Assembly: GCA_964551545.1 (NCBI GenBank)
Contig: CAZKCT010000005.1
Location: forward strand, 456 to 64,455
From: an uncultured Piscirickettsiaceae bacterium
GTDB taxonomy: Bacteria; Pseudomonadota; Gammaproteobacteria; GCF-002020875
Direction of reading: 5' to 3'
Length of the DNA stretch: 64,000 bases
This document shows, piece by piece, positions 33,572-34,522 of this stretch. How positions within the stretch are numbered: position 1 is the first letter of the stretch; each line of letters begins with the position of its first letter. The notes beneath the pieces are model-generated. The model did no database searches. It was given only the letters and a program-made list of their open reading frames with translations, and was not told the DNA's origin. The position numbers and the translations under genes are program-made.

Positions 33572-34522
33572 TTATCCTCGCTCCGGCTCCATTGCCTGAG
33601 CCACACGGCGAACCACCTCAATCGAAGCATCCCCTAACACGGTAATGCGATACCCCAACCTGGTAAAACTGTAGAGACTGGTCGGCTCCCCTTCCCGTTC
33701 CATCAAACGCTCTCCCTCTCTTGCACTCGACTTATCAATAAAGATCGAGAAAAGCGCATCGCCATCACTCAATACCAGATGCGTCACAGCGCCACCAAAA
33801 GTTGGAATCTGATGCTCTAGCGTGTCGATCTGACGGTAGCCTTCCGGCATCCAGCCTGGCTTCCACCCTATAATTCTTCGAGTCACCGGCTTCACCGCCT
33901 CTCGACCCTGCTGTGATGGCGCAGTAGAGACCAATGCACCATCGGCTCGCCCCTGTTCGCGATGGCGGATCAAGTAGGAACCGACAGAGATATCCTGATC
34001 TTGCGGATTCACCCAGCGCTCCACCCACTCCCCATCCACCTCAACCCACTCAGTCGTCACTGCAGGAGCCACAGCAGCCTGCTGTATTACGCCCTCACTA
34101 CTCTGTAGCAGGCCATTCTGCTGAACCAGCAAAAACGAAAACAGCGCCAGCGATGCCGCAAGCGCCACAGGAACCCAAGGGCGTCGATTCGAACTCGTGA
34201 TTGCCGCAGCGGATGGTTTGCTCTTCACTGCCTCTTCGTTCACCAGGTCTTCTCGCCCCCCGCCTCGTGGTGCCAGAATGGTCGGCTCTCGGTCCACCAA
34301 CGCCATGACCCGAGATGAGAAATCCTCTGATGGAGTCTGCTGCTCTCCACGCTCAAATAGGACTTCACGCAATTGATGATGATCCGCCCACTGTTGGCGA
34401 AGCATCGGATCACGCTCCATCGCATCAAGCAGTGCACCTAGCTCATCTGCAGCCAGCTCCCCATCCATCAACGCGGAGAGCTGTTCATCTGTTTTTTTGT
34501 CGTTCGACCGAATTTCACTCAT
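33572..34522 (-). CDS. rseA: Anti-sigma-E factor RseA fused to the C-terminal domain of RseB
   Basis: N-terminus has the RseA/MucA LSALMDGE motif and a single TM. The periplasmic part aligns with the RseB/MucB C-terminal domain (GWKPGWMPEGY...THLVLSDGDALFSIFID...YRITVLGD..SIEVVRRVAQ). No separate rseB gene lies between this gene and rseC. Confidence 0.7.
   Translation of the reverse strand: MSEIRSNDKKTDEQLSALMDGELAADELGALLDAMERDPMLRQQWADHHQLREVLFERGEQQTPSEDFSSRVMALVDREPTILAPRGGGREDLVNEEAVKSKPSAAAITSSNRRPWVPVALAASLALFSFLLVQQNGLLQSSEGVIQQAAVAPAVTTEWVEVDGEWVERWVNPQDQDISVGSYLIRHREQGRADGALVSTAPSQQGREAVKPVTRRIIGWKPGWMPEGYRQIDTLEHQIPTFGGAVTHLVLSDGDALFSIFIDKSSAREGERLMEREGEPTSLYSFTRLGYRITVLGDASIEVVRRVAQAMEPERG

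Follow-up and report, generated by a model that had tools for sequence, protein, structure and literature searches.

The subject of this study is a gene of the sigma-E operon in a 64,000-nucleotide stretch of DNA from an uncultured Piscirickettsiaceae bacterium, which in its full length is referred to as the window. The gene, an intact open reading frame (ORF) on the minus strand at 33572..34522, encodes a protein of 316 residues which Pfam, NCBIfam and PDB profile matches identify as an RseA-type anti-sigma factor followed by the C-terminal domain of RseB (hereafter the fusion protein). It is one membrane protein, consisting of the anti-sigma part of RseA and of only that half of RseB which binds RseA. 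Such a fusion had been described at this position in the original prediction, which was made from the sequence without database searches; the observation was found to be correct there and lies far beyond chance. The gene order on the minus strand is rpoE, the fusion gene, rseC, a mucD-type gene, a glutaredoxin-like gene and lepA, with nadB divergent and upstream. The ATG of the fusion gene overlaps the stop codon of rpoE as ATGA (34519-34522), and rseC lies directly downstream, with no gene located between the two. The sigma-E/AlgU pathway is a model for regulated intramembrane proteolysis and for the integration of two signals, unfolded outer-membrane proteins (OMPs) and lipopolysaccharide (LPS). 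In the canonical system, RseA is cleaved by DegS and then by RseP, RseB blocks this cleavage, and LPS releases RseB.

The N-terminal part of the fusion protein is an RseA_N domain, the predicted cytoplasmic and sigma-E-binding part, at residues 12-86 (34265..34489, minus strand; Pfam PF03872, 53.4 bits against a gathering threshold of 24, E 3.8e-14). It is followed by a single transmembrane helix at approximately residues 115-134 (PWVPVALAASLALFSFLLVQQ; 34121..34180, minus strand), which corresponds to the only KD19 hydropathy peak (2.04, at residue 124) and has two arginine residues (RR) on its N-terminal side. A single-pass protein with N-in, C-out topology can be inferred from these features, the orientation being assigned by the positive-inside rule. 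Residues A122, A123 and S124 are invariant in both alignments, A1 (the window family) and A2. Two elements were recognized in the predicted periplasmic portion. The first, placed by profile alignment, is an RseA-type segment at residues 156-191 (33950..34057, minus strand), comprising a beta-hairpin, TEWVEVDGEWVERW, and then the helix alphaI (SVGSYLIRHREQ); the second is a MucB_RseB_C domain at residues 219-312 (33587..33868, minus strand; Pfam PF17188, 55.8 bits against a gathering threshold of 30.1, E 5.3e-15). The motifs from which the fusion had been deduced are all present, namely L15-SALMDGE-22, W224-MPEGY-229, H248-LVLSDGDALFSIFI-262 and Y291-RITVLG-297, and the anti-sigma domain, the single transmembrane helix and the RseB-like periplasmic part were all confirmed, the last of these by the Pfam comparison that had been suggested for it. 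The NCBIfam models show how each parent is represented: the RseB equivalog model is covered by the fusion protein only at positions 220-313 of 319, and the RseA model only at positions 3-73 of 216.

Comparisons of the family profile with the PDB gave the same division. The N-terminal part matches RseA in its complex with sigma-E (1or7_C, E 3e-11) and the cytoplasmic part of MucA (6in7 and 8z6g), and the C-terminal part matches RseB (2p4b/3m4w) and MucB (6in9), with E-values of about 1e-6. AlphaFold2 was run twice, with 18 sequences for the full-length protein and with 70 for its periplasmic part. The C-domain was modelled confidently, with a predicted local distance difference test (pLDDT) score of 84-97, and the helices of RseA_N, at residues 3-57, reached 85-89. 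The best Foldseek matches of the C-domain model were RseB (2v43, 2v42 and 2p4b) and MucB (6jau and 6in9), each with a probability of 1.00, with 94-100 residues aligned at a root-mean-square deviation of 2.4-2.5 Å. In tblastn, Aeromonas RseB matches the region of the fusion only through its residues ~200-318, and a query of its residues 203-318 likewise finds this region. The notion that the C-terminal region is nothing but a divergent RseA periplasmic domain is ruled out, with practically no doubt left, by these Pfam, NCBIfam, PDB, fold and tblastn matches. As the protein has the N-domain, the topology and the gene position of RseA, and has neither the N-domain nor the separate secretion of RseB, we file it as an RseA-family anti-sigma factor with an RseB C-domain and not among the RseBs.

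Equating the periplasmic portion with the RseB C-domain, as had originally been done, is right for residues 219-312 and overlooks that the periplasmic part of RseA, including alphaI, appears to have been retained as well. Residues 156-202 are the best-conserved stretch of the window family (TEWVEVDGxWVERWVNP...SYLVRHDENR...LVSTAP), and the motif of the RseB-binding helix alphaI is found in the fusion protein as SYLIRH at residues 182-187. Non-fused RseAs of ~185 residues carry the same stretch as EWVRVSGTRWDV...LNSYLVNHNEYS...LPYARIV, the common pattern being EWVxVxGxxW...SYLVxHxE. A bridge between MucA and the fusion protein was provided by a profile that covers the C-terminal 80 residues of 111 RseA-type proteins without a fusion; it matches, in register, both the periplasmic part of MucA (6in9_C, E 6e-10) and residues 147-191 of the fusion protein (E 3e-6), these E-values being derived from a small target set. 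In this alignment, W170, S179, Y183 and H187 of the window protein correspond to W158, R162, Y166 and H170 of MucA, respectively, and the tyrosine and the histidine of alphaI (Y183 and H187) are invariant in 70 of the 70 fused proteins aligned. In RseA-RseB and MucA-MucB complexes alike, the primary contact is made by alphaI, which binds the C-domain, and this holds universally; W158, R162 and H170 of MucA are needed for MucB binding (PMC7400510). With the periplasmic part of RseA apparently kept together with alphaI, the fusion protein would be essentially a complete RseA/MucA-type anti-sigma factor to which an RseB C-domain has been added. Just ahead of SYL, where Arg-x-Arg is found in most of the family, a serine and a glycine (S179 and G181; ~33980..33988) are present in the window protein and in P0002, its closest relative.

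The remaining half of RseB, the LolA-like N-domain (PF03888), was searched for with a profile of 64 canonical RseB N-domains, with filters off, in all six frames and in stop-to-stop segments of at least 40 residues. The targets were the window and 15 related fused loci (L001-L012, the Amphritea loci and L088), the latter with ±10 kb. A single Aeromonas N-domain query was found to be under-sensitive, as it barely detects the RseBs of Xanthomonadales, and the 64-sequence profile was used instead. Three positive controls scored 195-293 bits with this profile, and no frame of the window or of the 15 loci with their flanks exceeded 5.9 bits (E>1). Pfam gave no PF03888 match in the fusion protein either, so that the predicted absence of the N-domain from the fusion is borne out. 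The accompanying statement that there is no stand-alone rseB, which had been drawn from the adjoining rseC, holds for the operon, for the 64-kb window and for ±10 kb of the related loci; as a statement about the whole genome it goes beyond that scope. By comparison, rseB comes after a separate rseA in each of the 68 other genome loci that the scan retrieved, and those checked with Pfam have both RseB domains. In a canonical relative, an rseA and a two-domain rseB occupy the position of the fusion.

These results bear on the possibility that the N-domain is made from a separate gene elsewhere and docks on the C-domain and alphaI, in which case the LPS-gated, two-signal logic would be kept. The large interface between the two domains of canonical RseB (PMC7400510) makes a non-covalent N-domain partner physically conceivable, and the part of the host genome covered by the search was 64 kb, in addition to the ±10 kb of the related loci. 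Nevertheless, the search of the window and of the 15 fused loci revealed no N-domain in any frame, and a two-domain rseB comes right after rseA in every canonical locus examined. Furthermore, the fusion appears to be of multiple origin, as described below, and the N-domain would have had to be relocated in parallel at each of these events. On balance, we consider a sensor split in this way to be improbable.

Two observations on non-fused RseBs were made in the course of this search. An RseB of Xanthomonadales that appeared to be without a C-domain owes this appearance to the C-domain profile; Pfam shows the RseBs of this group to be normal two-domain proteins. In a gammaproteobacterial metagenome-assembled genome (MAG), locus L062 (10940..11569) encodes an RseB of 209 residues, located after rseA with a gap of ~340 nucleotides. 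Its N-domain is reduced to the second half (PF03888 positions 94-177) and its C-domain is complete; an artefact of the start codon or of a frameshift may be the cause, or the protein may represent an intermediate stage of truncation.

With regard to the reality of the fusion gene, a chimeric assembly, a frameshift in an rseA-rseB pair and a deletion pseudogene had to be considered, the more so as the fusion protein is ~200 residues shorter than RseA and RseB together, as a deletion would give. However, the identical 316-residue protein is found in 96 assembly-collection blocks, on contigs of 50-66 kb from independent ENA and JGI assemblies and with the same neighbours. Seventeen clusters (90% identity) of 287-318 residues have both domains, at 44-99% identity. 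The full-length fusion is present in 12 GTDB species representatives, all of them MAGs assigned to uncultured Piscirickettsiaceae, Methylophaga or Gammaproteobacteria, and orthologs at 43-76% identity in at least 12 species keep the same length and layout. The arrangement nadB<>rpoE-fusion-rseC-mucD(-lepA) is common to 12 of the 12 species representatives, and the same operon is found at L088. There is also no room for remnants of the N-domain, none of which were found in any frame. For the comparison with the 76%-identical ortholog at L088, the ratio of nonsynonymous to synonymous substitution rates (dN/dS) is 0.11 over the whole gene, 0.06 for the alphaI segment, 0.07 for the C-domain and 0.09 for RseA_N; these values are approximate because dS is near saturation. 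Both periplasmic parts are under strong purifying selection, and the least conserved part of the fusion is the stretch between the transmembrane helix and the hairpin (residues 137-155). An assembly error or a frameshift, for which a check had been proposed, can thus be excluded by the independent assemblies, the layout shared by 12 species and the purifying selection, and an artefact or a decaying gene of any kind is hardly credible.

The neighbouring genes, all on the minus strand, are those of a sigma-E operon. The gene rpoE (34519..35169) encodes an ECF (extracytoplasmic function) sigma factor of the sigma-E/AlgU type, 216 residues in length, which scores 300.5 bits with TIGR02939 (RpoE_Sigma70, cut-off 236) and contains the Sigma70_r2 and r4_2 domains; its ORF has ~23 additional N-terminal residues relative to the RpoE model. 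A candidate autoregulatory promoter of the sigma-E/AlgU type, GGAACCA-N16-TCTAC, was read from the nadB-rpoE intergenic sequence at 35216..35243 (minus strand), 47 nucleotides upstream of the rpoE ATG. It resembles the sigma-E/AlgU promoter consensus, GGAACTT-N16-TCnnA, and would be in keeping with autoregulation. Downstream of the fusion gene, rseC/mucC (33085..33567, ~160 residues) matches Pfam RseC_MucC with 95.8 bits; its start is that chosen by the gene callers on identical contigs (159-160 residues), and the longest possible ORF, with 181 residues and its ATG at 33630, would have 59 nucleotides in common with the end of the fusion gene. The next gene (31557..33062) encodes a periplasmic serine protease of the MucD/DegP type with two PDZ domains (TIGR02037 degP_htrA_DO, 467.5 bits; Trypsin_2 and PDZ). 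The gene calls on identical contigs give 495-501 residues for this protein, and the longest ORF reaches 33170. Between the mucD-type gene and lepA lies the gene of a glutaredoxin-like (DUF836) protein of 78 residues (31321..31557; Pfam Glrx-like, 62.2 bits), the last gene ahead of a terminator-like hairpin at 31291..31317, which was found in a terminator scan. The glutaredoxin-like gene occupies the identical position at L088 and at the canonical rseA-rseB-rseC locus L083.

A survey of related sequences, which had also been proposed, showed that the architecture also occurs well beyond this genome. A profile search of 1.84 billion representatives gave ~28 further clusters (50% identity) with both domains among its best 150 matches, and a second, word-indexed search gave 68 fused clusters (90% identity), resulting in a collection of at least 126 fused sequences in all. 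More than 100 other database members combine RseA_N, a transmembrane helix and MucB_RseB_C in one polypeptide of ~235-335 residues. Cultured carriers are found in Nitrincola, Marinobacterium and Amphritea, and the complete chromosome of Amphritea japonica (AP014545.1) contains the order rpoE-fusion-rseC-mucD-lepA. The labels given to these proteins vary between RseA, 'negative regulator of sigma E', 'MucB/RseB C-terminal domain-containing protein' (NCBI) and hypothetical. In the literature searched, no paper describing a fusion of RseA with the RseB C-domain was found, and the ECF and anti-sigma classifications mention for ECF02 only a context of RseA, RseB and RseC. The fusion protein is an uncharacterised variant of a well-known system, present in databases and unstudied. 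An unusual, repeated anti-sigma architecture was also seen in two anti-sigma-like proteins from outside the window: RseA_N is present in three tandem copies in P0029 (384 residues) and in two in P0030 (318 residues), and both proteins lack an RseB domain.

The fused proteins fall into groups that differ in the spacer between the histidine of alphaI and the first tryptophan of the C-domain. This spacer measures 11-12 residues in 48 of 83 proteins, an Oceanospirillales-type group, and 30-38 residues in the window family (33 in the window protein), with a few intermediates; its fixed length in the 48 proteins suggests a defined geometry. In BLAST comparisons, the C-domain of the window family scores 59 bits against canonical Aeromonas RseB and 48 bits against the best other fused group, and its N-domain scores 70 bits against non-fused RseAs and 53 bits against other fused groups. 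Similarly, the fused protein P0028 shows ~50% identity in both of its domains to the separate RseA and RseB of Betaproteobacteria. As the domains are closer to split homologs than to those of other fused groups, these comparisons suggest several independent fusion events. The simplest origin of each fusion would be an in-frame deletion from the tail of RseA to the interdomain linker of RseB, with loss of the RseA tail and of the signal peptide and N-domain of RseB.

The fusions of Amphritea, Marinobacterium and Nitrincola (e.g. WP_051632711.1 and WP_151704126.1) have the same Pfam domain order as the window protein and the invariant tyrosine and histidine of alphaI, and the operon of Amphritea japonica is the same as the window locus. 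In contrast, they are only 22-27% identical to the window protein, have a spacer of 11-12 rather than 33 residues and lack the TEWVEVDGxWVERW hairpin; they and the window fusion are probably independent fusions, as each domain of the window protein is closer to non-fused homologs. Compared with rpoE-rseA-rseB-rseC of Escherichia coli, the window locus has the same sigma family, chromosomal position and flanking genes, nadB and lepA, and its product the same RseA_N domain, single-pass topology and RseB C-domain fold. The E. coli system differs in that RseA and RseB are separate, whereas the fusion is one polypeptide that has neither the signal peptide of RseB nor its LolA-like N-domain. Moreover, the Pfam RseA_C domain is undetected in the fusion, and the window operon includes a gene for a MucD-type protease, as in Pseudomonas. 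The AlgU-MucA-MucB-MucC-MucD system of Pseudomonas aeruginosa (structures 6IN9 and 6JAU) shares with the window operon the sigma factor, the anti-sigma factor, RseC/MucC and MucD. The W...Y-x3-H pattern of alphaI in MucA (W158, Y166, H170) aligns with the fusion, and the MucB C-domain is 27-29% identical to that of the fusion over ~100 aligned residues. The differences are that the window locus has neither a separate mucB nor the lipid-A pocket of the N-domain and that the equivalent of R162 is a serine. The binding of alphaI to the C-domain, which in P. aeruginosa takes place between two proteins, would in the fusion be intramolecular or between identical chains.

The structures of the canonical complexes also modify the explanation that had been offered for RseB, in which its C-domain shields RseA from DegS. 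What stands is that the C-domain anchors RseB on alphaI; it is the N-domain pocket that buries the DegS site (PMC7400510). The N-domain supplies the lipid-A pocket and, in RseB, buries residues 142-151 of RseA, the region of the DegS site (PMC7400510).

We favour the reading, to which we assign a probability of roughly 55%, that the fusion protein works as an anti-sigma-E factor made of a single chain. In this reading, the RseB C-domain, tethered as it is, and alphaI would together fold into a cap in the periplasm, and the lipid input of the RseB type would have been lost. The cytoplasmic RseA_N would hold RpoE, with the protein anchored by its one transmembrane helix in the predicted N-in, C-out orientation. 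AlphaI and the tethered C-domain may associate, either within one chain or between neighbouring chains, and the result would be a permanently attached folded cap that does the constitutive job of RseB. Such a cap could block signal-independent cleavage, for example by being too bulky for a site-2 protease of the RseP type. The release step driven by lipid or LPS would presumably have been lost along with the LolA-like N-domain. As the N-domain that buries the site-1 region is gone, the stretch between the transmembrane helix and the hairpin would be exposed, and this variable stretch of ~20 residues (137-155) could be open to a site-1 protease of the DegS/AlgW type. Activation would then be set by the site-1 protease's own signal and not by a two-signal gate of OMP and LPS.

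Several results weigh against this reading. Pfam RseA_C gave no match at E<=1 in the fusion protein, a direct hhalign comparison of the family alignment A1 with the periplasmic part of MucA gave only a spurious match of 10 columns, and the residue equivalent to R162 of MucA, an arginine in most family members, is Ser179 in the window protein. In both AlphaFold2 runs, alphaI was predicted to be helical and was placed with a pLDDT below 50, which lends no support to a contact between alphaI and the C-domain; since the helix was left unplaced, cis-docking is neither supported nor refuted by modelling. In the 64-kb window there is no gene for DegS/AlgW or RseP, and the absence of a stand-alone rseB applies to the operon, the window and the flanks of the related loci. 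The case for independent origins is based on BLAST scores and on an unbootstrapped neighbour-joining tree of ~92 columns. Finally, the largest fused group has a spacer of just 11-12 residues, and this may not allow the alphaI helix to fold back onto its own C-domain.

This last point, together with the AlphaFold2 models without cis docking of alphaI, would be consistent with an action in trans, in which the tethered C-domain binds the alphaI of a neighbouring chain, or another periplasmic partner or ligand. The proteins might then form dimers or arrays, or the C-domain might itself act as a sensor, and the regulated step would be the release of this contact in place of a self-cap. On the other hand, the spacer of 30-38 residues in the window family would permit cis binding, and the models, being of monomers only, are silent on trans contacts. 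We regard an action in trans as unlikely, though less so than a split sensor.

Returning to the single-chain cap, the expression "differently wired switch" used in the original prediction is a reasonable, if tentative, reading. A wider proposal would be that the architecture is a repeatedly evolved, self-contained single-input switch, whose module of C-domain and alphaI guards against signal-independent proteolysis or itself senses; we put this forward tentatively and regard it as rather doubtful. If it is true, the fused proteins would provide a natural single-input sigma-E pathway in which the roles of the two RseB domains are separated. The architecture would amount to a natural dissection of what each domain contributes, the anchoring C-domain being kept covalently on RseA and the lipid-sensing N-domain being discarded. 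Envelope monitoring without an RseB-type LPS checkpoint would be predicted for the marine Piscirickettsiaceae/Methylophaga-like clade, for Amphritea, Marinobacterium and Nitrincola, and for a beta-proteobacterial-like group. As cultured and completely sequenced hosts exist, the idea is directly testable. There is also a consequence for annotation: the labels of the fused proteins are inconsistent, and a genome with such a fusion would be counted among those 'lacking rseB'.

Three other genes of the window were noted. A 1157-residue ORF at 39456..42929 (minus strand) contains a transporter of the major facilitator superfamily (residues 51-370), an acyltransferase (427-549) and an AMP-binding enzyme (623-1008); it resembles a single-chain LplT-Aas lysophospholipid recycling protein and represents a second envelope-lipid gene fusion in the window. 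The ORF at 8328..9590 (plus strand, 420 residues) has a CcmC-type Cytochrom_C_asm domain (residues 32-202) and a CcmD domain (residues 377-417) in a single reading frame. The two usually have a gene each; the ORF may be a genuine fusion or may have been called too long. At 54135..55355 (minus strand), a HipA-like toxin kinase (HipA_C and Couple_hipA) is encoded; the surrounding region, which contains pheST, thrS and the gene of a GGDEF-EAL protein, is otherwise of housekeeping character.

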